A DNA stretch of 64,000 bases from Eubacteriales bacterium (lineage in GTDB: Bacteria; Bacillota; Clostridia; Oscillospirales; CAG-272): positions 41,490-105,489 of the forward strand of contig JAZNCH010000036.1 in assembly GCA_045587445.1 (NCBI GenBank), read 5' to 3'. Below are positions 23,584 to 49,896 of this stretch, piece by piece (the stretch's first letter is position 1; every line of letters starts with the position of its first letter). The translations under genes were made by a program, and so were the position numbers. The notes beneath the pieces are model-generated. The model had not been told where the DNA came from and ran no database searches. It saw only the letters and a list, made by a program, of their open reading frames with translations.

Positions 23584-25023
23584 TTAATATGCTTTACCCC
23601 AGTAAACCATATGTGTTGCTTTTTTACCGCAGCATACACAGGTATCGCTGAAGTGTTCGCCGTCCATAGGGATACATCTTGAGCCAACGCCGGTAAGCTC
23701 TTTAACCTTGTCTTCGCAAGCTTCGTCTCCACACCACATAGCTTTTACGAAGCCGTCGCCGTTTTCAGCAAGTTTAGCATTGATTTCGTCGATAGATTTA
23801 CATTCGTAAGTGTGCTTTTCGCGGTTTTCAAGAGCTTTCTGGAATATACCGTCACGTACCATTTGGAGCTTTTCTGCAACTTCTGCTTCAAGGTTATCGA
23901 GAGAAACGATATATTTCTGTCTATCGTGTCTTGTGACGAGAACGCACTGATTATTTTCAATATCGCGAGGGCCCATTTCGAGACGTACGGGAACACCTTT
24001 CATTTCGTATTCCGAGAATTTCCAACCCGCAGAATTGTCGGTATCGTCGAGCTTAACTCTAAACTGTTTTGCAAGTCTGTCGCGTACCTCTGCGCATTTT
24101 TCAAGTACCCCATCTTTATGCTGTGCTATAGGAATGATAACAGTCTGAATAGGAGCGACTGCAGGCGGAAGAACGAGACCGGAATCGTCGCCGTGAGTCA
24201 TAATGATAGCACCGATAAGTCTTGTTGTAACGCCCCAGCTTGTCTGGTGAGGATATACTTTTTTGTTTTCCTTGTCGGTGTACATAATATCAAATGCTTT
24301 AGCAAAGCCGTCGCCAAAGTAGTGGGAAGTGCCTGCTTGAAGAGCTTTTCCGTCATGCATCAAAGCTTCGATAGCATAGGTGGAAACAGCTCCTGCAAAC
24401 TTATCGCTTTCTGTCTTTTTACCTTTTACTACCGGCATAGCAAGATATTCTTCGCAGAATTTTGCATATACGTTGAGCATCTGTTCTGTTTCGGTAATTG
24501 CTTCTTCAGCTGTTGCATGAATGGTGTGCCCCTCCTGCCAGAGAAATTCTCTTGAACGGAGGAAAGGTCTTGTTGTCTTTTCCCATCTTACAACGCTTAC
24601 CCACTGATTGTAAAGCTTAGGCAAATCTCTGTATGAATGAATAATATTGGCATAGTGTTCGCAGAAAAGTGTTTCGGAGGTAGGACGTACGCAGAGTCTT
24701 TCTTCGAGTTGTTCCTTGCCGCCGTGAGTAACCCAAGCGACCTCAGGAGCAAAGCCTTCAACGTGGTCTTTTTCTTTGTTTAGCAGACTTTCGGGAATGA
24801 ACATAGGCATACATACGTTTTCGTGGCCGAGTTCTTTGAACATAGTGTCAAGAGTTTTCTGTATGAGCTCCCAAATTGCGTATCCGTAAGGTCTAATTAC
24901 CATACAGCCCTTAACGCTGGTGTATTCTATAAGCTCCGCCTTTTTGCAGATGTCTGTATACCACTGGGCGAAGTCAACGTCCATAGAGGTTATGTCCTCT
25001 ACCATTTTCTTGTCTTTAGCCAT
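23584..25023 (-). CDS. proS: prolyl-tRNA synthetase, archaeal/eukaryote-like type
   Basis: 479 aa without the bacterial INS editing insertion. N-terminus FAQWYTDI...[14 protein letters not shown] and a Cys-rich C-terminus ending WGKAY. Confidence 0.88.
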
Positions 25024-29689: not shown

Positions 29690-29764
29690 TGGAGCCGATG
29701 GTGGGGATTGAACCCACGACCTGCTGATTACGAATCAGCTGCACTACCACTGTGCTACATCGGC
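29690..29764 (-). tRNA. tRNA-Thr (anticodon CGU), CCA encoded
   Basis: Hand-folded cloverleaf. Acceptor GCCGATG/CATCGGC, D stem GCAC/GTGC, anticodon stem GCTGA/TCAGC with loop TTCGTAA, T stem GTGGG/CCCAC with TTCAATC loop. 75 nt. Confidence 0.9.
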
Positions 29765-38961: not shown

Positions 38962-38990
38962 TTGACTTTAGCACAGGAAAGTGGTAAAAT
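38962..38990 (+). promoter_or_regulatory. sigma-A promoter of the T-box leader
   Basis: TTGACT (38962-38967), 17 nt, TAAAAT (38985-38990), preceded by TGg. Confidence 0.65.
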
Positions 38991-38996
38991 GCTGAC

Positions 38997-39262
38997 ATAA
39001 TTTAAATGCGTTGACGAAAACAAGTAGATAACGTCGAGACTCTTACAGAGAATTGTCGGTTGGTGCGAGACAAAGACGACGATGTTATTGAATACATTTC
39101 CGAGCGGCTTGTCCGAATTTGTACAGTAGGGTAAGACGGGGACGCCCGTTACAGCGTAAGAGTCTAAGGATAAATATTGTCCCGGACTTAATGAGAACCA
39201 ACTGAGGTGGTACCACGGTGTAATAATCGTCCTCTGCGATTTTTTTTCGCAGAGGACTTTTT
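38997..39262 (+). promoter_or_regulatory. T-box riboswitch leader, specifier codon UAC (tyrosine)
   Basis: GA-motif region UGACGAAAACAAGUAGA. AG bulge AGAGA (39047-39051). Distal loop GGUGCGAGA. Specifier loop GAA-UAC-A (UAC 39093-39095). T-box core GGUGGUACCACGG (39206-39218). Mutually exclusive terminator. Confidence 0.85.
39229..39262 (+). terminator. T-box-controlled terminator
   Basis: 11-bp perfect stem GTCCTCTGCGA/TCGCAGAGGAC, T7 loop, then TTTTT. The CCTC of the 5' arm can instead pair with GAGG just upstream of the T-box core (antiterminator). Confidence 0.85.
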
Positions 39263-39277
39263 GTTTTGTAAAATTGG

Positions 39278-39304
39278 GAGAATATGGGCGGAGCACATAT
39301 TCTC
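39278..39304. repeat. degenerate member of the GGGCGAAGCCC hairpin family
   Basis: GAGAATATG-GGCGGAGCA-CATATTCTC. Compare 7236-7268 (GAGGATATGGGCGAAGCCCATATCCTC). Confidence 0.5.
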
Positions 39305-39362
39305 TATGGTTGTTTATTAAATTAGAAAAATATTAAGCTTTAGATATAGAAGGAGAAAGAAA

Positions 39363-41000
39363 ATGGTAATAGCGGATTTTTTGGAAAGAAATGCGCGTCT
39401 TTACGGAGATGAAACGGCATTGGTTGAAATAAACCCTTCCGAAGAAAGAGACAATGCGGTAACTTGGAGAGATTTTAGTCTTATTGAGAATACAAGCCCC
39501 GACCTTCCTTACAGAAGAGAAATAAATTGGAGACAGTTTGATGAAAAGGCGAACAGATTTGCAAACCTTTTGCTCAGCCGAGGTATCAAGAAAGGACAGA
39601 AAGTAGCGATACTGCTTATGAACTGTCTTGAATGGTTGCCGATATATTTTGGAATATTGAAATCGGGTGCTCTTGCTGTTCCCATGAATTTTAGATATTC
39701 GGGCGATGAAATTGAATACTGTCTTGATTTGGCTGACGTTGACGTTTTGGTATTTGGTCCCGAATTTACAGAGCGACTTGAGACTGTTCCGAATGCACTT
39801 GATAGACTTAAGTTTAAATTCTTTGTGGGAAGAGACGTTCCTGCATTTGCTGAAAGCTATCTTGAGCTTGTAACTTATACCTCAACAAAGGCACCTCCCG
39901 TAATGGTGGGAGAAAAAGACTACGCGGCAATATATTTTTCATCGGGTACGACAGGTAGACCGAAGGCTATTTTGCATAATCACAGAGCATTGGTTTGTTC
40001 TTGCGAAACCGAGCAGAATCACCACAGACAGTCGAGAGATGACGTGTTTTTGTGTATTCCTCCCCTTTATCATACGGGTGCAAAAATGCACTGGTTCGGA
40101 AGCTTGCTTTCGGGAAGCCGAGCAGTACTTCTAAGAGGTGTGAAGCCCGAGTGGATATTGCGTGCGGTAACAGAAGAAAAATGTACTATTGTATGGTTAC
40201 TTGTACCGTGGGCACAAGATTTGCTTAATGCAGTTGAAGCGGGTAAGATAAATATTGGCGATTATATGCTTGACCAATGGAGACTTATGCATATTGGTGC
40301 TCAGCCTGTACCGCCCAGTCTTATAAACAGGTGGAAGAAGAAATTCCCGAATCATGAGTATGATACGAATTACGGTTTGTCGGAATCTATTGGTCCCGGT
40401 TGCGTACATCTCGGTGTTGAGAATATTCATAAGGTAGGTGCAATAGGTAAGCCCGGATATAACTGGGAAGCGAAGATTGTTGACGAAAACGCTAATACCG
40501 TAGAACAGGGCGAAGTCGGAGAACTTGCTGTTAAGGGAGACGGCGTAATGCTTTGTTACTATAAAAACGAAAAGGCGACAAATGAAGTTTTGAAGGAGGG
40601 TTGGCTGTTTACCGGAGACGTTGCAAGAATGGACGAAGAGGGCTTTATCTATCTTGTTGACAGAAAGAAGGACGTTATTATTTCGGGCGGTGAGAATCTG
40701 TATCCCGTTGAAATTGAAGACTTCTTGAATACTAATACAAAAATAAAAGACGTTGCAGTTATTGGTCTTCCTGATGAGAGACTTGGTGAAATTGCAGCAG
40801 CGGTTATTGAATTTAAAGATGGAATGACGGCGACAGAAGAAGAAATAAACGAATTTTGTCATGCGCTGCCGAGATATAAGCGTCCCAAGAAGCTTATATT
40901 TGCAAAAGTTCCCAGAAATCCCACCGGTAAAATTGAAAAGCCGGTATTGCGTCAGATGTATGGCGCAGGAAGACTTGTAGAGGCGCAGACTACAAAATAA
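39363..41000 (+). CDS. AMP-forming acyl-CoA synthetase (class I adenylate-forming enzyme), substrate unknown
   Basis: YFSSGTTGRPKA (A3), YHTGA, GWLFTGDVARMDEEGFIYLVDRKKDVIISGGENLYP (A8) and PRNPTGKI (A10). GAAGGAG RBS. Confidence 0.85.
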   Translation: MVIADFLERNARLYGDETALVEINPSEERDNAVTWRDFSLIENTSPDLPYRREINWRQFDEKANRFANLLLSRGIKKGQKVAILLMNCLEWLPIYFGILKSGALAVPMNFRYSGDEIEYCLDLADVDVLVFGPEFTERLETVPNALDRLKFKFFVGRDVPAFAESYLELVTYTSTKAPPVMVGEKDYAAIYFSSGTTGRPKAILHNHRALVCSCETEQNHHRQSRDDVFLCIPPLYHTGAKMHWFGSLLSGSRAVLLRGVKPEWILRAVTEEKCTIVWLLVPWAQDLLNAVEAGKINIGDYMLDQWRLMHIGAQPVPPSLINRWKKKFPNHEYDTNYGLSESIGPGCVHLGVENIHKVGAIGKPGYNWEAKIVDENANTVEQGEVGELAVKGDGVMLCYYKNEKATNEVLKEGWLFTGDVARMDEEGFIYLVDRKKDVIISGGENLYPVEIEDFLNTNTKIKDVAVIGLPDERLGEIAAAVIEFKDGMTATEEEINEFCHALPRYKRPKKLIFAKVPRNPTGKIEKPVLRQMYGAGRLVEAQTTK

Positions 41001-41024
41001 GCAACAAAAACAAGGTGATACAAA

Positions 41025-42563
41025 ATGTTTATAAAAATTGCAATGCTGGTAATATTTTTTGGTACGATGATAGGTATCGGTTTATATTGCATGAAACATT
41101 CAACAGACGTTAATGGTTTTGTACTGGGCGGACGAAGCGTAGGTCCTTGGTTGACAGCTTTTGCTTACGGTACATCGTATTTTTCGGCTGTTGTGTTTGT
41201 TGGATATGCAGGGCAGTTTGGCTGGAAATACGGTATTGCAGCGACATGGGCAGGAATAGGAAATGCGATACTCGGTTCATTGCTCGCGTGGATGATACTT
41301 GGCAGACGTACTCGTATTATGACACAGCATTTGGACAGTGCAACGATGCCTCAGTTTTTTTGTAGCCGTTACAACAGTCAAGGGTTAAAACTACTGTCAT
41401 CGGCGGTAATATTTATATTTTTAATTCCGTACACGGCATCGCTTTACAACGGACTCAGCCGTTTGTTCGGCATGGCTTTTGATATACCGTATGAGGTGTG
41501 CGTAATAGTAATGTCGATATTGACTGCGATATACGTTATAGCGGGTGGATATATGGCAACTGCTATAAATGATTTTATACAGGGAATCATTATGATAGTC
41601 GGTATTATAGCCGTAATAATTGCAGTACTTAATACACAGGGCGGATTGACTGCCGCTATGGACAGTTTAAGCCAAATATCAAGCGAAGCGGAGGGAATAA
41701 AACAGGGGGCGTTAACTTCATTCTTTGGTCCCGATCCGATAAATTTGGCCGGTGTAGTTCTTCTTACCTCACTTGGTACATGGGGACTTCCGCAGATGGT
41801 GCAAAAGTTTTATGCGATAAAGAATGAAAAGGCGATAACCAAGGGCACTATTATTTCGACCATATTTGCGCTGATAGTTGCGGGTGGTTGTTATTTCCTT
41901 GGAGGCTTCGGCAGATTATTTACACCCGATACGACGGCAGAAGGTGCGATTATTTTTGACTCAATAGTACCGAATATGCTCAAAGGATTGCCCGATGTTT
42001 TGATAGGGGTAGTAATAGTTCTTGTTCTTTCAGCTTCGATGTCAACACTTTCTTCACTTGTTTTGACTTCAAGCTCTACTCTTACGCTTGACTTTATAAA
42101 AGAAAGAATCGCAAGAAACATGAATGAGAAAAAGCAAGTATTTATTATGCGTGTTTTGATAGTTATATTTATTGCTGTATCTGCAGTAATTGCGATTATT
42201 CAGCATAAGGGAAGTGTTTCATTTATAGCTCAGCTTATGGGTGTATCATGGGGAGCTTTGGCAGGAGCGTTTTTAGCTCCGTTCTTATACGGTTTGTACT
42301 GGAAGGGCGTAACAAAGGCGGCGGTTTTGGTAAATATAATATTTTCTACAATTGTTATGATTGCGAACATATTGGTAAGAGGTGTATTTCCGTCTATATT
42401 GCAGTCTCCGATAAATGCGGGTGCATTTTGTATGCTTGCGGGACTGATAATAGTACCCATAGTAAGTAGATTTACAAAGAAGCCCGATAAAAAAATGGTA
42501 GAAGAGGTATTCTCTTGCTATTCACAGAGTGTTACGGTATCCGTAAAAGAGCATATGGGTTAA
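41025..42563 (+). CDS. sodium:solute symporter (SSS) family permease
   Basis: 512 aa, about 13 TM helices, PutP/PanF-like N-terminal pattern (GGRSVGPWLTAFAYGTSYFSA). Confidence 0.75.
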   Translation: MFIKIAMLVIFFGTMIGIGLYCMKHSTDVNGFVLGGRSVGPWLTAFAYGTSYFSAVVFVGYAGQFGWKYGIAATWAGIGNAILGSLLAWMILGRRTRIMTQHLDSATMPQFFCSRYNSQGLKLLSSAVIFIFLIPYTASLYNGLSRLFGMAFDIPYEVCVIVMSILTAIYVIAGGYMATAINDFIQGIIMIVGIIAVIIAVLNTQGGLTAAMDSLSQISSEAEGIKQGALTSFFGPDPINLAGVVLLTSLGTWGLPQMVQKFYAIKNEKAITKGTIISTIFALIVAGGCYFLGGFGRLFTPDTTAEGAIIFDSIVPNMLKGLPDVLIGVVIVLVLSASMSTLSSLVLTSSSTLTLDFIKERIARNMNEKKQVFIMRVLIVIFIAVSAVIAIIQHKGSVSFIAQLMGVSWGALAGAFLAPFLYGLYWKGVTKAAVLVNIIFSTIVMIANILVRGVFPSILQSPINAGAFCMLAGLIIVPIVSRFTKKPDKKMVEEVFSCYSQSVTVSVKEHMG

Positions 42564-42602: not shown

Positions 42603-42631
42603 TTGAATATATTTTATATTTGTGATATAAT
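42603..42631 (+). promoter_or_regulatory. sigma-A promoter of the iorAB operon
   Basis: TTGAAT (42603-42608), 17 nt, TATAAT (42626-42631), preceded by TGa. Confidence 0.6.
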
Positions 42632-42694: not shown

Positions 42695-44434
42695 ATGAAA
42701 CAGCTAATGTTGGGGAATGAGGCTGTTGCAAGAGGTTTGTTTGAGGCAGGATGTTCGTTCGTTTCAAGCTATCCCGGCACTCCCAGTACGGAAATAACCG
42801 AATGCGCGGCGAAATATGCTGAGATTTATGCAGAATGGGCACCTAATGAAAAGGTAGCTATGGAGACTGCGTTTGGCGCGGCTTTGGCAGGAAAGAGAAG
42901 CTTTTGCGGTATGAAGCACGTTGGACTTAACGTTGCGGCAGACCCATTATTCACTATATCGTATACAGGTATTAATGCAGGAATGGTTATCGGCGTGGCT
43001 GATGACCCCGGTATGCACAGCTCACAGAACGAACAGGATTCAAGACATTACGCAAAGGCGGCAAAACTGCCTATGCTTGAGCCCTCTAACTCAAAAGAAG
43101 CACTTGAGTTTGCAAAGGCGGCTTATGAAATATCCGAAGGCTTTGATACCCCTGTACTTTTGAAGATGTGCACACGTGTTGCTCATTCGCAGAGTATTGT
43201 TGAAACATCTGACCGTGTTGAAAAGGAACAGGTTGAATACGTTAAAAATCCGTCAAAATACATAATGATGCCCGGATTTGCAAAGAAAAGACACCCCATT
43301 GTTGAAGAAAGAATGGCAAAATTAGCTGAATATGCTGAAACTTCTACACTCAACAAGTGGGAAAAGGGAACCGATAATAAGATAGGTATTATTACCGCCG
43401 GAACTTGTTATCAGTACGTAAAGGAAGTTTGCGGAAACGACGTAAGTATTTTGAAGCTCGGTATGGTTTGGCCCATTTCCGAGAAGATGATAAAAGACTT
43501 TGCATCTTCCGTTGAAAAAGTGATAGTAGTAGAAGAGCTTGACGGTTTTATCGAAGAATTTTGCAATGCACTCGGTATTGTAACCGATGGCAAGAACTTG
43601 TTCTCGAACATTGATGAATTGTCTCAGAACAAGGTTGCAAAGGGACTTGGTATAGAATATACCGAGGGAGAGGCTGTAGATGCCGTTATTCCCAACCGTC
43701 CCCCCGTTATGTGTGCAGGTTGTCCTCACAGAGGGCTTTACTACGTTTTGTCAAAATTGAAGCTTAACGTTATCGGTGATATAGGCTGTTATACACTCGG
43801 TGCAGTTGCTCCGCTTAACGCAGTAGACAGCGTAATTTGTATGGGTGCTTCTATATCTGGAGCACACGGATTTAACAAGGCGAATGACGGTAAGAGCGAT
43901 AATAAGACCGTTGCAGTAATAGGCGACTCGACGTTTATGCATTCGGGAATGACGGGACTTGTTAATATTTCATATAACAATTCCAACAGTACCGTTATTA
44001 TCCTTGACAACTCAATTACGGGAATGACAGGACATCAGCATAATCCCACCACAGGATTTAACCTAAAGGGAGACCCTGCGGCAAAGGTTGACCTTGAAGC
44101 TTTGTGCCGTGCTATCGGTATTAATTCTGTAAGAGTTGTAGATCCATATAATATTGCCGAATGTGAAACAGTTATTAAAGAAGAATTGGCAAAAGAAGAG
44201 CCCTCTGTTATTATATCGAGACGTCCCTGCGCACTTCTTAAATACGTAAAACATAATTCTCCCGTAACCGTTTCGGCAGACAAGTGTAAGAGCTGTAAGA
44301 TGTGTATGAAGATAGGCTGTCCCGCGATAAGTATGGTTGACGGCAAGGCAGTAATAGATGCAACACTTTGTACGGGTTGCGGAGTATGCACACAGCTTTG
44401 CAAATTCGGAGCAATGCAGGAGGCAGAAAAATGA
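42695..44434 (+). CDS. iorA: indolepyruvate (arylpyruvate) ferredoxin oxidoreductase, alpha subunit
   Basis: MLGNEAVARG..EAG....SYPGTPSTEI N-terminus, TPP-binding GDSTF.HSG, and C-terminal 2x[4Fe-4S] motifs (CKSCKMC..GCP, CTGCGVC). Confidence 0.88.
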   Translation: MKQLMLGNEAVARGLFEAGCSFVSSYPGTPSTEITECAAKYAEIYAEWAPNEKVAMETAFGAALAGKRSFCGMKHVGLNVAADPLFTISYTGINAGMVIGVADDPGMHSSQNEQDSRHYAKAAKLPMLEPSNSKEALEFAKAAYEISEGFDTPVLLKMCTRVAHSQSIVETSDRVEKEQVEYVKNPSKYIMMPGFAKKRHPIVEERMAKLAEYAETSTLNKWEKGTDNKIGIITAGTCYQYVKEVCGNDVSILKLGMVWPISEKMIKDFASSVEKVIVVEELDGFIEEFCNALGIVTDGKNLFSNIDELSQNKVAKGLGIEYTEGEAVDAVIPNRPPVMCAGCPHRGLYYVLSKLKLNVIGDIGCYTLGAVAPLNAVDSVICMGASISGAHGFNKANDGKSDNKTVAVIGDSTFMHSGMTGLVNISYNNSNSTVIILDNSITGMTGHQHNPTTGFNLKGDPAAKVDLEALCRAIGINSVRVVDPYNIAECETVIKEELAKEEPSVIISRRPCALLKYVKHNSPVTVSADKCKSCKMCMKIGCPAISMVDGKAVIDATLCTGCGVCTQLCKFGAMQEAEK

Positions 44435-45009
44435 GCAACAATACGAAAAATATAATGATTGTCGGTGTAGGCGGTCAAGGGTCGCTTCTTGCAAGTAAGC
44501 TGCTCGGAAGATTGCTTCTTACCAAAGGATATGACGTAAAGGTTTCAGAGGTTCACGGCATGAGCCAGAGAGGCGGTTCTGTTGTAACGTACGTTCGTTT
44601 CGGAGACGAAGTATATTCACCGGTTATTGACGAAGGTGAAGCGGATTTTGTAGTATCATTTGAACTTCTTGAAGCGGCAAGATGGACGAAGTTCTTGAGA
44701 GAAAACGGAAAGATTATAACCAATACCCAGCAGATTAATCCTATGCCGGTTGTTACGGGAGCGGCAGAATATCCTGCGGAGCTTGTTGTAAAAATGAAGG
44801 CTGACGGATTTAATGTTGACGCGATAAACGCACTTGAACTTGCAGAGACGGCAGGTTCATCAAAGGCCGTTAACCTCGTGCTTATGGGCAGACTTTCAAA
44901 GTATTTTGACTTTACCGAAGAAGAATGGATGAAGGCAATCGAGGAAAGCGTTCCTCAAAAATTCTTGGAAATGAACAAAAAGGCATTTGCACTGGGAGCA
45001 AATGCGTAA
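44431..45009 (+). CDS. iorB: indolepyruvate ferredoxin oxidoreductase, beta subunit
   Basis: The ATG overlaps the iorA stop (ATGA). IVGVGGQGSLLASK..G.......EVHGMSQRGGSV signature. Confidence 0.85.
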   Translation: MSNNTKNIMIVGVGGQGSLLASKLLGRLLLTKGYDVKVSEVHGMSQRGGSVVTYVRFGDEVYSPVIDEGEADFVVSFELLEAARWTKFLRENGKIITNTQQINPMPVVTGAAEYPAELVVKMKADGFNVDAINALELAETAGSSKAVNLVLMGRLSKYFDFTEEEWMKAIEESVPQKFLEMNKKAFALGANA

Positions 45010-45027: not shown

Positions 45028-46335
45028 ATGGAAAAATACTATCAGCCGGAGATAGAAACAGCTACTCGGGAAGAAATGAAAGCGCTTCAAAGTGAGCGTC
45101 TTATAAACACAGTAAAAAGAGTGTATGAAAAGGTTCCCCATTACCGTAAGAAGATGGAGGAGATGGGTGTTACTCCTGATGACATTAATAGTGTATACGA
45201 CCTCTGTAAGCTTCCGTTTAACTATAAGCAAGATTTGCGCGATACATACCCTTACGGAATGTTTGCAGTACCGATGAAGGACGTAGTAAGACTTCACGCG
45301 TCAAGCGGTACGACAGGAAAGCAGATAGTTGTTGGCTATACGCAGAACGATATGGACTTGTGGGCTGACTGTTGTGCCAGAGCGTTTACGGCGGCAGGCT
45401 GTACTGATGAAGACTTAGTTCACGTTTCATACGGTTATGGATTGTTCACCGGCGGACTTGGCGCTGACGGGGGCGCGAGAAGAATAGGCGCGACGGCAAT
45501 ACCCGTATCAAGCGGAAATACCCAGAGACAGATAACTATTTTAAAAGATTTCGGTTCGACTATACTGTGCTGTACTCCCTCTTATGCATTGCATATAGCA
45601 GAGACACTTCACGATATGGGTTATACGAAGGACGATATAAAGTTAAAGGCGGGAATATTCGGAGCTGAACCTTGGACAAACGAGATGCGTCATCAGATTG
45701 AGGAAATGCTCGGACTTAAGGCTTTTGATATATACGGCTTGACTGAGATAATCGGTCCGGGTGTCGGCTTTGAATGTGAAGAACAGACGGGGATGCATAT
45801 AAACGAAGACCACTTTATCGTTGAGGTAATTGACCCCGATACAGGTGAAGTACTTCCCGAGGGGACACAGGGCGAGCTTGTATTCTCTTGCATAACTAAA
45901 GAAGCATTTCCGATACTCAGATACAGAACGAGAGATATAGGGGTTATTACAAGAGAGAAATGCTCTTGCGGCAGAACGCTTGTGAAAATGACAAAGCCGA
46001 GAGGCAGAAGCGACGATATGCTTATTATCAGAGGTGTTAACGTATTTCCATCGCAGATTGAGACCGTTCTTATTGAAAAGGGATATACTGCAAACTATCA
46101 GATTGTTGTTGACAGAGAAAACAACTTTGACAGCATTGAAGTGCGCGTAGAGCTTTCACCCGAAAACTTCCGCGATACAGTTAAGGGACTTGATAAGCAG
46201 GCAAAAGAGCTTGCAGAGGGACTTAAGGTTATTCTCGGTATTAACGCTAAGGTAATATTGATGGAGCCTAACTCACTTCCTCGTTCCGAAGGCAAGGCCG
46301 TTAGAGTAATTGACAAGCGTAAGCTTTTAGACTAA
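45028..46335 (+). CDS. paaK: phenylacetate-CoA ligase family protein
   Basis: [28 protein letters not shown] and [19 protein letters not shown] blocks typical of PaaK. Confidence 0.85.
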
Positions 46336-46356
46336 AATATAGGGGTGTTAAGTAAA

Positions 46357-46785
46357 ATGGTAAAACAGTTATCGGTATTTATTCAAAATAAATCGGGTAA
46401 AATAGCATCCGTTACAAGAACTCTTTATGAGAATGGAATTGACATTCGCGCTCTTTCTATTGCGGATACGGCAGATTTCGGAATATTACGTATGCTTGTA
46501 AGCGATGTTGAAAAAGCGAGATTGGCTTTGGCAAAAGAAAACTGTATCGTAAGCGTGAACGAAGTTGATGTTGTGTTAGTTCCCGACAGACCCGGCGGTC
46601 TGGCAGAGGTTTTGCAGAAGATGTCAGACGCGCATATAGATATTGAATATATGTATTCTCTTATAGACAGAGGAACAGAAGATGCATATATGGTATTCCG
46701 TTTTGCTGACGATGCCAATGTGCTTGACGTTCTTGAAGCGAACGGATTAAAGACCGTTCCCGGAGCAAAACTCGGACTTAACTGA
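46357..46785 (+). CDS. ACT domain-containing protein
   Basis: Two ACT-like halves (LSVFIQNKSGKIA..., VVLVPDRPGGLAEV...). The position after paaK is a recurrent arrangement. ATG 46357 preferred over GTG 46345. Confidence 0.7.
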   Translation: MVKQLSVFIQNKSGKIASVTRTLYENGIDIRALSIADTADFGILRMLVSDVEKARLALAKENCIVSVNEVDVVLVPDRPGGLAEVLQKMSDAHIDIEYMYSLIDRGTEDAYMVFRFADDANVLDVLEANGLKTVPGAKLGLN

Positions 46786-46807: not shown

Positions 46808-47974
46808 ATGCAGGAATTAAGCAGAAAAACAAAACATTTTACAGATTCTGTTATACGCCGTATGACAAGAATCGCTATAGCGAATAACGCGATTAACTTG
46901 GCGCAGGGGTTCCCCGATTTTGATCCGCCCAAAGTTTTGACAGACAGACTTGAGGAGATTAGTCAACTCGGTCCTCACCAGTATCCTATTACTATGGGCG
47001 CACCAAACTTTAGACGTGCTTTAGCTGAAAAGTGCGGAAGATTTATGGGTAGAAAGATTGACCCCGAAACAGAGGTAGTTGTTACTATAGGTTCGACGGA
47101 AGCGATGGTAGATACTTTGTTTGCCATTACTAACCCCGGCGACAAAATAATTATGTTCTCACCTTATTTCGAGAATTATCGTGCGCAGACTCTTCTGGTT
47201 GACTGCGAGCCCATATTCGTACCCCTTATTCCCCCTGCATTCAACTACGATGCAAATGTACTCGAAGATGCTTTTAAGCAGGGTGCAAAGGCAATTCTTA
47301 TTTGTAACCCTTCAAACCCCAGCGGTAAGGTTTTTACAGAGGCTGAACTTAAGCAGATAGCAGACCTTGCTATTAAATATGATACTTACGTTATTATGGA
47401 TGAAGTTTATGAGCATATCGTATACGAGGGTCATAAGCACATCTATATGAACAGTCTTCCGGGAATGTGGGAGAGAACAATTTCTTGTAGTAGCTTGTCA
47501 AAGACCTATTCGATAACAGGCTGGAGACTTGGTTATGCTATAGCTCCTCAGCATATTATGGAAAGAATTAAGCAATACCATGACTTTAATACCGTTGGTG
47601 CGCCTTCTCCTCTTATGGAAGCGGCAGTTGTCGGACTTGAGCTTCCCGACAGCTACTATGACGAATTCGGTCAGCACTATGCTCATATGAAGAAGATATT
47701 TACCGAAGGTCTTGACAGACTCGGTATTGAATATTCCGACCCGCAGGGAACGTATTTCGTATTGGCGAATATCGGTCAATTTATGAAGAAGGGACAGAAC
47801 GACGTGGAATTCTGTGAACAGATGGCTGCCAAGGTAGGCGTTGCCGCAGTACCCGGAACTTCATTCTTTATGGAAGACGTAAGAGATATTGTAAGACTTC
47901 ACTATGCGAAGAAAGACGAGACGCTTTACGAAGCACTCGAAAGACTTGCTACAATCAAACAGAAATTAGGTTGA
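46808..47974 (+). CDS. class I/II PLP-dependent aminotransferase (YbdL / kynurenine-aminotransferase-like)
   Basis: INLAQGFPDF start motif, NPSNPSGK, and SLSKTYSITGWRLGY (PLP lysine). Confidence 0.85.
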   Translation: MQELSRKTKHFTDSVIRRMTRIAIANNAINLAQGFPDFDPPKVLTDRLEEISQLGPHQYPITMGAPNFRRALAEKCGRFMGRKIDPETEVVVTIGSTEAMVDTLFAITNPGDKIIMFSPYFENYRAQTLLVDCEPIFVPLIPPAFNYDANVLEDAFKQGAKAILICNPSNPSGKVFTEAELKQIADLAIKYDTYVIMDEVYEHIVYEGHKHIYMNSLPGMWERTISCSSLSKTYSITGWRLGYAIAPQHIMERIKQYHDFNTVGAPSPLMEAAVVGLELPDSYYDEFGQHYAHMKKIFTEGLDRLGIEYSDPQGTYFVLANIGQFMKKGQNDVEFCEQMAAKVGVAAVPGTSFFMEDVRDIVRLHYAKKDETLYEALERLATIKQKLG

Positions 47975-48031: not shown

Positions 48032-48065
48032 AAAACGGCAGAGGTATTGTTCCTCTGCCGTTTTT
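48031..48065 (+). terminator. terminator of the ior-paaK-aminotransferase operon
   Basis: CGGCAGAGG/CCTCTGCCG stem flanked by A5 and T5. Confidence 0.8.
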
Positions 48066-48150
48066 GTAACAAAAATGATTACTTGTTTTAAAATACAATT
48101 TGTGCTATAATGATAGAAAGTGTTACAAAAGTATACAGTGGAGCGTTTGT

Positions 48151-49854
48151 ATGAGTAATTTTGCCGAAATTTATACCGAAGAGGGATTGAATATGCCCGA
48201 TATTCCTTGGAATATTTACCCGAGACCGCTTATGAAAAGGGATTCGTTTTATTGTTTGAACGGAGAATGGGATTTTTGTGTGTGCAAGGGTGATGAATAT
48301 ACCGAAAATGAAAAAATAACCGTTCCTTTTGCCCCCGAAACTTTGCTGTCGGGAGTGGGAATAAATTTAGACGAGGACTGTTATGATTCTTTTGTTTATA
48401 AGAAGCAATTTGTTTTACCCGAAGGGTTTAACGAAGGGAAGGTTTTGCTTCATTTTGGAGCAGTGTCGAATTATTCCGAAATAATACTGAACGGAAAAAC
48501 AGTTGGTATACACAGAGGCGCATACGATTCGTTTTTCTTTGATATAACAGACTACTTAAAGAGTGATAACACGCTTGAAGTATATGTGAAGAACATACTT
48601 CGAGACAATCTTTTGCCATACGGAAAGCAGAGCCGAAAACGCGGCGGTATGTGGTATACGCCAACCTCGGGAATTTGGCAGACGGTATGGCTTGAAAGCG
48701 TACCTGCCGAATATATAAAGAGTATTAAAACGGAAACGAAAGATAACAAAGTAATAATAAAGGCTGACGGCACAGAAAATGCAAAAGTTAAGCTGACTAC
48801 AGAAAATGGCATATCCGTGTTTGATATGTGTAACGGCGTATGCGAGATAGAGATAGACGAGCCGAGATATTGGTCGCCCGAATCCCCTTATTTATATTAT
48901 TTTTCTGTTGAGACAGAGTGTGATAAGGTTGAGTCATATTTTGCATTTAGAACTTTGGAAATAAAGAATATAGACGGATACGAAAGACTTTGCTTGAACG
49001 GTAAACCCTACTTTTTTCATGGACTGCTTGACCAAGGATATTGGAGTGACGGAGGTCTGACACCGCCGTTGCCTACGTCTTATGAAAAAGATATAATGGC
49101 TATGAAATTGTTAGGCTTCAATATGCTGAGAAAGCATATAAAGATAGAGCCTCCACAGTTCTATTATGATTGCGATAGGCTCGGTATGGTTGTTTTTCAG
49201 GATATGATAAACAACGGCGACTATAACTTTTTGAGAGATACCGCATTGCCAACGATTGGGGTAAAAAGACTTAACGATAAATATATGCACAAAGATGAAG
49301 CACCGCGAGAGATTTTTGCCGAATATATGGAAAACACGGTTGAAGTGCTGAAAGGCTACCCCTCTATTTGTTGTTGGACTATATTTAACGAAGGCTGGGG
49401 ACAGTTTTGCGGTACGGAAATGTATAAAAAGCTTAAAGAGATTGATAGTACGAGGTTTATAGATACTGCGTCGGGCTGGTTTAAGGGCGTTGAATCCGAC
49501 GTTGATTCGGAGCACGTATATTTCCGTAAAGTTAAGCTGAAAGCAGGGAAAAAACCTCTTGTGCTTTCGGAGTTTGGCGGATATTCATATAGGGTGGAGG
49601 GGCATATTTTTAATCCCGATAACGAATATGGTTACGGTAAATATAAAACGCGCGAGGATTTTGTAAAAGCGTTTTGCAATTTGTACGAGAAAGAGATAAT
49701 GCCCCTTGTAAAGCAAGGACTTTGCGCATCGGTGTATACGCAGGTATCCGACGTAGAGGACGAGACTAATGGACTGTTTACCTATGACCGCCGAGTGCTA
49801 AAGGTCAAACCCGAGGAGTTTGCACACATATCGCAGAGGCTGAAGGAGATATAA
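48151..49854 (+). CDS. glycoside hydrolase family 2 protein
   Basis: Sugar-binding, Ig-like and TIM-barrel order with WTIFNEGWG (acid/base Glu) and a later SEFGG block. Start moved to ATG 48151 (GGAG RBS). Confidence 0.75.
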   Translation: MSNFAEIYTEEGLNMPDIPWNIYPRPLMKRDSFYCLNGEWDFCVCKGDEYTENEKITVPFAPETLLSGVGINLDEDCYDSFVYKKQFVLPEGFNEGKVLLHFGAVSNYSEIILNGKTVGIHRGAYDSFFFDITDYLKSDNTLEVYVKNILRDNLLPYGKQSRKRGGMWYTPTSGIWQTVWLESVPAEYIKSIKTETKDNKVIIKADGTENAKVKLTTENGISVFDMCNGVCEIEIDEPRYWSPESPYLYYFSVETECDKVESYFAFRTLEIKNIDGYERLCLNGKPYFFHGLLDQGYWSDGGLTPPLPTSYEKDIMAMKLLGFNMLRKHIKIEPPQFYYDCDRLGMVVFQDMINNGDYNFLRDTALPTIGVKRLNDKYMHKDEAPREIFAEYMENTVEVLKGYPSICCWTIFNEGWGQFCGTEMYKKLKEIDSTRFIDTASGWFKGVESDVDSEHVYFRKVKLKAGKKPLVLSEFGGYSYRVEGHIFNPDNEYGYGKYKTREDFVKAFCNLYEKEIMPLVKQGLCASVYTQVSDVEDETNGLFTYDRRVLKVKPEEFAHISQRLKEI

Positions 49855-49857
49855 AAA

Positions 49858-49889
49858 ACACGCTGTAAGATTTTTAGCTTACAGCGTGT
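49858..49889. terminator. hairpin between the convergent GH2 and spoVAF-like genes
   Basis: 12-bp perfect stem ACACGCTGTAAG/CTTACAGCGTGT. Strong T-run on the minus strand, weak on the plus strand. Confidence 0.7.
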
Positions 49890-49896
49890 TTGCGTA

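Follow-up and report, generated by a model that had tools for sequence, protein, structure and literature searches.

A tyrosine T-box leader upstream of an acyl-CoA ligase in a clostridial genome and its probable cargo, a salvage-type route to aromatic amino acids

Introduction

The leader that precedes tyrS in Bacillus subtilis is the founding tyrosine T-box (Grundy and Henkin, as cited in PMC2494555), in which a UAC specifier in a GAA...A context, an AG bulge and a distal loop are combined with the conserved T-box sequence, its UGGN bulge and the competition between a terminator and an antiterminator. The same features are found in a leader within a 64,000-nt stretch of DNA from a Eubacteriales bacterium (GenBank assembly GCA_045587445.1, contig JAZNCH010000036.1, positions 41,490 to 105,489), which is referred to here, at its full length, as the window. 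The cargo is different, as the B. subtilis leader controls an aminoacyl-tRNA synthetase gene, whereas the leader in the window precedes genes for a coenzyme A (CoA) ligase and a symporter and, probably, for an indolepyruvate (arylpyruvate):ferredoxin oxidoreductase (IOR). This leader is almost certainly a tyrosine T-box, and its cargo is rather likely to be a salvage-type route to aromatic amino acids that is induced by shortage of the end product, a pathway read from gene families and their conserved linkage.

Genes for tyrosine supply under T-box control have been described in the Bacillus cereus group, where they encode NhaC-family transporters, a tyrosine biosynthesis operon and a phenylalanine-4-hydroxylase, so that uncharged tRNA-Tyr raises the tyrosine supply by uptake, de novo synthesis or conversion (PMC2494555). 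The route proposed here has the same purpose and differs in its chemistry, which would proceed from an arylacetate to its CoA thioester and then through a reductive carboxylation that depends on ferredoxin.

This chemistry also has precedents. Aryl acids are reported to feed the synthesis of aromatic amino acids via IOR in Methanococcus maripaludis (Porat et al., as cited in PMC4162585), and rumen bacteria are reported to form phenylalanine from phenylacetate by reductive carboxylation (references as cited in PMC7356843). The sequence of steps in these organisms, from arylacetate to aryl-acetyl-CoA, arylpyruvate (by IOR) and amino acid, is the one proposed for the window; the differences lie in the T-box, a bacterial device, in an additional, unrelated ANL ligase of 545 aa and in a permease of the sodium:solute symporter (SSS) family, and in that the route is proposed here from its genes. 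In Bacteroides, IOR is likewise encoded beside an AMP-forming arylacetate-CoA ligase (PMC13285125, 2026), to which the PaaK-like gene of the window is a counterpart by position alone, while the clostridial loci have, in addition, a T-box, a symporter gene and another ligase, which belongs to a different ANL subfamily. The aerobic phenylacetate (paa) catabolon shares PaaK-like proteins with the window and PaaI-like proteins with related loci; the present gene set differs from it in having no ring-oxygenase genes, in its anaerobic, ferredoxin-dependent context and in the proposed flow towards an amino acid.

The mechanism and the chemistry are thus already known, and it is the regulatory link between the T-box and this cargo that appears to be undescribed. 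The ANL ligase, SSS permease and IOR families are absent from the T-box survey PMC2494555, which mentions no CoA, ferredoxin or phenylacetate gene, and a further survey (PMC3766115), searched for indolepyruvate, CoA ligase, phenylacetate, aromatic and oxidoreductase, gave no match. No link of T-boxes with IOR, PaaK, arylacetate or acyl-CoA ligases was found in the literature searched, although a prior listing in a database such as TBDB is possible.

The T-box leader and its switch

An Rfam scan of the whole 64-kb window returned a single T-box, located upstream of the ligase gene and matching the full length of RF00230 (model positions 1-219) with an E value of 1e-26 and a score of 122.8 bits, where the gathering score is 93 bits; here as elsewhere in this study, calls rest on sequence and on comparison. 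An earlier note, made by eye from the sequence of this region, had described the leader as a T-box with a tyrosine specifier. The Rfam match bears out the first point, the motifs it had listed were all found in place on reading the sequence, and the covariance model that it had proposed as a check positions UAC in the specifier column, which corresponds to tyrosine. The coordinates of these elements are collected in Table 1.

For comparison, relatives of the ligase were sought in one genome per GTDB species, which confirmed the family in at least 594 species. The best 80 of these loci, labelled L001 to L080 and encoding ligases 68-83% identical to that of the window, were taken as the comparative set, and their T-boxes were included in an alignment of 33 leaders.

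Stem I contains the GA/K-turn region, the S-turn and a specifier codon that is followed by a purine, A39096, directly next to a closing helix formed by UUUC (39097-39100) and its partner GAAA (39017-39020). The helices flanking the specifier loop covary. The earlier note had likened the context of this codon to that of the specifier in B. subtilis glyQS. In addition to the AG bulge, GGUGCGAG appears within the predicted distal loop of Stem I; these two elements would provide the platform on which the tRNA elbow rests. The UGGU bulge would fit a tRNA with the discriminator A73. This is the discriminator base of most tRNAs, tRNA-Tyr included, and the argument is therefore consistent but weak; a search of the window and of 60 related loci for a tRNA-Tyr gene on which to check the discriminator gave none.

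The terminator of the leader has a predicted folding energy of -26.4 kcal/mol (z = -5.6 relative to shuffled sequences). Its 5' arm includes CCUC (39231-39234), which also belongs to the 3' strand of the antiterminator, and the two structures therefore exclude each other. The antiterminator pairing was specified by hand; 97.6% of the cells were paired and seven of the nine pairs covaried, a result reached by none of 500 shuffles, while controls in which the pairing was slid along the alignment gave 51-62%. RNAalifold predicted 44 pairs from the same alignment, with compensatory changes in 36 of them, including pairs of the terminator and of the Stem I helices on either side of the specifier loop. 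The competition between terminator and antiterminator that the earlier note had seen in this leader is hence upheld, both by the overlap at CCUC and by the covariation of the two structures across 33 leaders. The minimum-free-energy fold of the whole leader contained the terminator and parts of Stem I without the T-box architecture (z only -2.15), and for this reason the covariance model and the alignment were relied on instead. Judged by its sequence-level defining features, all of those tested being present, the RNA itself is a T-box of the ordinary kind.

A promoter-like site with 10 of 12 consensus matches is placed for a transcription start just before the leader. A second, weaker match (9 of 12) at 39246-39274 overlaps the terminator, which would suit the view that the leader is a decayed, non-functional T-box and that the genes are driven from another promoter. 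This is very improbable, as the leader matches the Rfam model over its full length with a score clearly above the threshold, every functional motif is intact and the leader has been kept, with compensatory changes, in 31 other species. Moreover, promoter-like matches in the region are at chance level, with 19 found and 15 expected.

Specifier codons and arrangement of the related leaders

Related T-boxes were located by a combination of a regular expression for the T-box core, an nhmmer profile and Rfam. The regular expression alone proved insufficient, missing variants with GGUGGUAAC or AGUGGUAAC cores, and the leaders of L041, L044, L055, L071 and L080 were recovered by the nhmmer profile. 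A T-box lies directly upstream of the ligase, or of a symporter-ligase pair, in 31 of the 80 loci, and 12 of the 14 related loci scanned with Rfam passed the gathering score. The specifier column reads GAA-UAC (tyrosine) in 25 loci as well as in the window, and GAA-UUC (phenylalanine) in six (L016, L017, L021, L027, L028 and L080); no other specifier occurs among the 31 T-box-bearing loci, and only the middle base of the column varies, between the tyrosine and the phenylalanine codon. The Rfam alignments agree with this reading, with UUC for L027 and L016 and UAC for L042, L055 and L040. The question raised in the earlier note, whether orthologous ligase-symporter pairs also carry T-boxes for tyrosine, phenylalanine or tryptophan, thus receives a positive answer for the first two, with 25 and 6 cases, respectively, among 80 species. 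Both codons specify aromatic amino acids whose 2-oxo acids are substrates of IOR (PMC13285125).

Two loci are informative with regard to the specifier and its cargo. In L024, from a member of the Lachnospiraceae, the ligase itself has no T-box and is preceded by a PaaI-like thioesterase gene, and a tyrS gene with its own T-box follows the cluster. The tyrS leader has the same GAAUACA context as the leader in the window, which validates the specifier reading as a positive control. In L011, from Pseudoflavonifractor, a tyrosine T-box with the loop CAA-UAC precedes the ligase alone, and a phenylalanine T-box precedes iorAB-paaK-ACT-aminotransferase, a layout in which control seems to have been divided naturally between tyrosine and phenylalanine.

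In eight loci (L036, L038, L042, L044, L045, L053, L055 and L060), nothing but the ligase or a symporter-ligase pair is placed behind the T-box, which identifies the ligase as the core cargo; the genes that follow such stand-alone ligases (folP, cdaA, an ABC-2 transporter gene and genes for M42 peptidases) are all unrelated. All nine T-boxes of stand-alone ligases have a tyrosine specifier, which, given 26 tyrosine specifiers among 32 leaders, is not significant (hypergeometric p ~0.11) and is treated as a hint. Together with L011, on which the argument mostly rests, this suggests, if loosely, that the 545-aa ligase may serve a tyrosine branch and PaaK a phenylalanine branch.

The T-box-bearing loci L038 and L042 come from bins labelled Spirochaetia. 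Their ligases are ~72% identical to that of the window, their leaders (L038:7587-7876 and L042:2558-2850) score above the Rfam threshold, and the sequence of their specifier loop is GAAU-UAC-C, in which a single U is added and the codon is followed by C in place of A. The ligase and T-box unit of these bins could have arrived by horizontal transfer or could reflect mis-binning.

Gene set downstream of the leader

The first two genes behind the leader, which the earlier note had described as an adenylate-forming CoA ligase followed after 24 nt by an SSS permease, are confirmed as such by Pfam domains and open reading frames. An AGGAGA ribosome-binding site lies 8 nt upstream of the ligase start codon. 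This pair had been called atypical cargo, and the gene families are indeed unusual for a T-box. The account, however, ended at position 42563, and the same strand continues beyond it with iorA, iorB, paaK and genes for an ACT-domain protein and an aminotransferase, which make a route of amino-acid supply plausible; with these genes included, the cargo would fit the normal logic of T-box control.

Both IOR subunits, the alpha subunit with its thiamine pyrophosphate and 4Fe-4S domains and the beta subunit, score above their equivalog cutoffs. The likely ATG of iorB overlaps the stop codon of iorA, whereas the mechanically called open reading frame begins at 44368, and the gaps from iorA to the aminotransferase gene range from -4 nt (iorA-iorB, with the start at 44431) to 22 nt. 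The PaaK-like protein falls below the cutoff of its equivalog model and is for that reason filed as an arylacetate ligase of the PaaK family rather than as the equivalog. ACT domains typically bind amino acids, and the ACT-pair protein may act as a feedback sensor, adding to the T-box a control of arylacetate activation that operates on the protein. The aminotransferase would form the amino acid from the arylpyruvate.

The AT-rich stretch of 131 nt from the symporter gene to iorA is free of terminators, and the first strong terminator downstream of the leader lies behind the aminotransferase gene. Read-through at the leader would therefore probably yield transcripts of all seven genes, including iorA-iorB-paaK-ACT-aminotransferase. 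A GH2-family glycosidase gene further downstream (48100-49854) was considered as part of the unit and rejected, as it is preceded by this strong terminator and is not conserved in the related loci.

Table 1. Positions of the T-box elements, promoter-like sites, terminators and genes in the window, and of selected features in related loci (prefixed L).
Feature	Position	Strand	Basis
T-box leader	39002-39237	+	RF00230, 122.8 bits
Stem I with GA/K-turn region	39008-39105	+	Rfam structure line; compensatory changes in helices, 33 leaders
S-turn AGUA	39023-39026	+	sequence
AG bulge AGAGA	39047-39051	+	sequence; invariant across 33 leaders
Distal loop GGUUGGUGCGAGA	39058-39070	+	sequence
Specifier loop GAA-UAC-A	GAA 39090-39092, UAC 39093-39095, A 39096	+	sequence and covariance model
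Stem III hairpin CGGG/CCCG	39137-39148	+	alignment columns 153-156 pair with 162-165, nearly invariant
T-box core GAGGUGGUACCACGG	39204-39218 (UGGU 39208-39211)	+	sequence
Antiterminator: helix A1 GAGG/CCUC, bulge UGGUACC, helix A2 ACGGU/AUCGU	39204-39234	+	Rfam structure and covariation
Intrinsic terminator of the leader, GUCCUCUGCGA / UCGCAGAGGAC then UUUUUGUUUU	stem 39229-39257, to 39266	+	11-bp stem, 7-nt loop, U-run
Sigma-70-like promoter-like site TTGACT-17-TAAAAT, upstream TG	38962-38990	+	10/12 consensus matches; consensus match only
Promoter-like site TTGAAT-17-TATAAT, upstream TG, in symporter-iorA gap	42603-42631	+	consensus match only
Acyl-CoA ligase, class I adenylate-forming, 545 aa	39363-41000	+	AMP-binding 251 bits, AMP-binding_C 45.7 bits, both above cutoffs
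Sodium:solute symporter, SSF family, 512 aa	41025-42563	+	SSF 196 bits (cutoff 22.8); TIGR00813 186.9 bits (cutoff 184)
iorA, indolepyruvate (arylpyruvate):ferredoxin oxidoreductase alpha subunit	42695-44434	+	TIGR03336 726.1 bits (cutoff 650.9)
iorB	44431-45009	+	NF005325 275.7 bits (cutoff 230); likely ATG 44431, GGAGG upstream
PaaK-like phenylacetate-CoA ligase (arylacetate-CoA ligase)	45028-46335	+	TIGR02155 560.4 bits (cutoff 646.3); AMP-binding_C_2
ACT-domain-pair protein	46345-46785	+	ACT_8, ACT; kept after paaK in related loci
Class I/II aminotransferase	46808-47974	+	Pfam/NCBIfam; 75-87% identical in related loci carrying it
Intrinsic terminator closing the gene set, CGGCAGAGG / CCUCUGCCG then UUUUU	48036-48065	+	-23.8 kcal/mol, z = -7.7
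L011 tyrosine-type leader, CAA-UAC	L011:7704-7990		below Rfam threshold; 188 bits nhmmer
L011 phenylalanine leader	L011:9724-10004		Rfam 107 bits
L024 (Lachnospiraceae) tyrosine T-box and tyrS	L024:15810-16105 and L024:16261-17484		immediately downstream of lig-sss-iorAB-paaK-ACT cluster
Hotdog thioesterase, T-box-less loci	L001:7445-7852, L002:4418-4822, L024:7339-7854, L026:3843-4271, L032:7459-7866		

Ligase family and conserved gene order

The 80 loci belong mostly to gut and rumen Clostridia (Oscillospiraceae, Acutalibacteraceae, Lachnospiraceae and Ruminococcus), with a few ligase-bearing bins labelled Spirochaetia, Victivallales, Thermoguttaceae or Smithella; the nearest relatives by ligase sequence, among the matches listed, are metagenome-assembled genomes of Oscillospiraceae and Faecousia. 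A tblastn search with the proteins of the window against these loci revealed the recurrent order lig-(sss)-iorA-iorB-paaK-ACT-(aminotransferase). Among the 50 loci with at least 3.6 kb of sequence downstream of the ligase, iorA is present within 3.5 kb of it in 36, often at a distance of only 20-70 nt, and the symporter gene adjoins the ligase gene, upstream or downstream, in 24 of the 80 loci. Furthermore, in five T-box-less loci the gene directly upstream of the ligase encodes a hotdog thioesterase of ~135 aa, whose best NCBIfam match is the hydroxyphenylacetyl-CoA thioesterase PaaI (63-85 bits, below the cutoff of 118.9). This PaaI-like neighbour, taken with specifiers that are restricted to tyrosine and phenylalanine, is a hint that the thioester may be an aryl-acetyl-CoA.

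Proposed switch and salvage route

In the proposed mechanism, charged tRNA-Tyr would leave the 11-bp terminator to form, and transcription would stop at ~39266. Uncharged tRNA-Tyr would pair through its anticodon with UAC in Stem I and through its NCCA end with UGGU, stabilising the antiterminator, and RNA polymerase would then read into the ligase and symporter genes and probably on into iorA-iorB-paaK-ACT-aminotransferase. The SSS permease would import an arylacetate, most likely 4-hydroxyphenylacetate and possibly also phenylacetate, which the 545-aa ligase would convert to the aryl-acetyl-CoA at the expense of ATP, releasing AMP. With CO2 and reduced ferredoxin, IOR would operate reductively and carboxylate 4-hydroxyphenylacetyl-CoA to 4-hydroxyphenylpyruvate, from which the aminotransferase would yield tyrosine, and the PaaK-like ligase would serve a parallel branch from phenylacetate to phenylalanine.

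Several observations weigh against this route. The 31 related leaders share ancestry, so that their counts are counts of sequences and not of independent events. Forty-nine of the 80 loci have no T-box, and in the 11 of these that were scanned no Rfam element was found upstream of the ligase; T-box control would accordingly be one option among several. The division into two branches depends mostly on L011. In the window, a good promoter-like site precedes iorA, and most of the expression of the IOR genes may be independent of the T-box, which in this genome may govern mainly the ligase and the symporter. In addition, iorAB is not found beside the ligase in 14 of the 50 loci in which it could be scored, and the best family matches of both the ligase and the symporter fall below their cutoffs.

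With regard to the ligase, no NCBIfam subfamily or equivalog cutoff is reached. Its best matches are to models of fatty-acyl-CoA ligases in general, with scores that in no case attain the cutoff (PRK06187 leads with 416 against 476), and its closest solved structures in the PDB are FadD13, FadD5 and feruloyl- or coumarate-CoA ligases. An attempt to assign the substrate from these sources was abandoned, as only generic fatty-acyl, feruloyl, coumaroyl and malonyl-CoA ligases were matched. The ligase might thus activate another acid with no part in the supply of IOR, for instance a fatty acid, hydroxycinnamate or benzoate, and be coupled to tyrosine for another reason, a view that would also accommodate the separate PaaK-type arylacetate ligase already in the cluster and the loci in which iorAB is not adjacent. 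We consider this unlikely in view of the close linkage to iorAB in most of the loci scored, of the confinement of the specifiers to tyrosine and phenylalanine and of the PaaI-like thioesterase upstream of the ligase in several loci. Moreover, no known route leads from fatty acids, hydroxycinnamates or benzoates to tyrosine. On the same three lines of evidence, we infer that the 545-aa ligase activates an arylacetate, most likely 4-hydroxyphenylacetate.

The symporter is matched best by the amino-acid and vitamin carriers PutP (215 bits) and PanF (177 bits), both below their cutoffs; it is not an equivalog of PutP, PanF or ActP, each of these being far from reached. It could therefore carry an amino acid rather than an arylacetate. 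If it were a sodium/tyrosine or aromatic amino acid symporter, the T-box could serve the transporter, with the ligase as a passenger of unrelated function, and T-box-controlled amino-acid transporters are indeed common (PMC2494555). The distribution of the leader makes this improbable: the T-box tracks the ligase and not the symporter, as seen in L038, L042, L044, L053, L055 and L060, where a tyrosine T-box precedes a ligase that has no symporter, and the symporter is a neighbour of the ligase in only 24 of the 80 loci, with iorAB linked to the ligase in 36 of the 50 that were scored. Uptake of an arylacetate is the function proposed for the SSF protein.

The direction of the pathway is the remaining point to be weighed. 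In Bacteroides thetaiotaomicron, IOR is involved in forming phenylacetate from phenylalanine, and arylpyruvate pathways of the oxidative type occur widely among Clostridia (PMC13285125). By analogy, the cluster could be catabolic, leading from the aromatic amino acid via arylpyruvate and aryl-acetyl-CoA to the arylacetate, with the T-box merely tuning it. Such an arrangement appears highly unlikely, as inducing the consumption of tyrosine when tRNA-Tyr is uncharged would be counter-productive, and a symporter for uptake, together with two AMP-forming ligases, suggests an inward flow. Characterised catabolic clusters conserve ATP by a phosphotransacylase and a kinase or by ADP-forming ligases, not AMP-forming ones; AMP-forming ligases favour thioester synthesis, and in Bacteroides and methanogens a biosynthetic role has been proposed for IOR where its genes adjoin that of an AMP-forming arylacetate ligase (PMC13285125). 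The same study (2026) leaves undecided the direction of clusters of IOR and AMP-forming ligase genes in gut anaerobes. It is only for a supply route that being induced by an uncharged tRNA is sensible, and the T-box consequently argues for the synthetic direction, a regulatory argument that is available here and lacking in the Bacteroides case.

The specifier codon of a T-box is a built-in label for the purpose of the genes downstream of it. In the present case it provides a testable functional hypothesis for a ligase family in at least 594 species, so far named only "acyl-CoA ligase" or "class I adenylate-forming enzyme", and the same hypothesis extends to an SSS permease family without an assigned role. 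In its broadest form, to which we give about an even chance, the T-box-ligase unit would mark a widespread, unannotated salvage pathway for tyrosine and phenylalanine in gut and rumen Clostridia, comprising a new ANL subfamily as 4-hydroxyphenylacetate-CoA ligase, a new SSS subfamily as arylacetate importer and an IOR that is reversed when tRNA-Tyr or tRNA-Phe is uncharged. If this is true, common gut Oscillospiraceae, Lachnospiraceae and their relatives would take up phenylacetate and 4-hydroxyphenylacetate when short of aromatic amino acids, and these commensals would be regulated sinks for the phenylacetate and 4-hydroxyphenylacetate released by other bacteria. These two acids are precursors of phenylacetylglutamine and p-cresol, and the pathway would have a bearing on cross-feeding and on host-relevant pools of aromatic metabolites.

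Other features of the window and of related loci

The window encodes Spo0A and GerA, which indicates a spore-forming Firmicute. Other elements of the translation machinery within it are a gene for a prolyl-tRNA synthetase with a ProRS-C_1 domain (23584-25023, minus strand), which has no T-box leader, and a tRNA-Thr (CGU) gene (29690-29764, minus strand). The GH2-family glycosidase gene mentioned above encodes a protein of 584 aa, the size of a beta-glucuronidase or galactosidase, and has a promoter-like site of its own. Between this gene and the convergent GerA gene, a palindromic hairpin of 14 bp, with runs of A and of T on its flanks (49856-49891), looks like a bidirectional terminator. Among the related loci, Rfam identified an azaaromatic (yjdF) riboswitch at L003:2713-2813, and a transfer-messenger RNA (L041:3800-4145) followed by the small RNA Gut-1 (L041:4177-4250).

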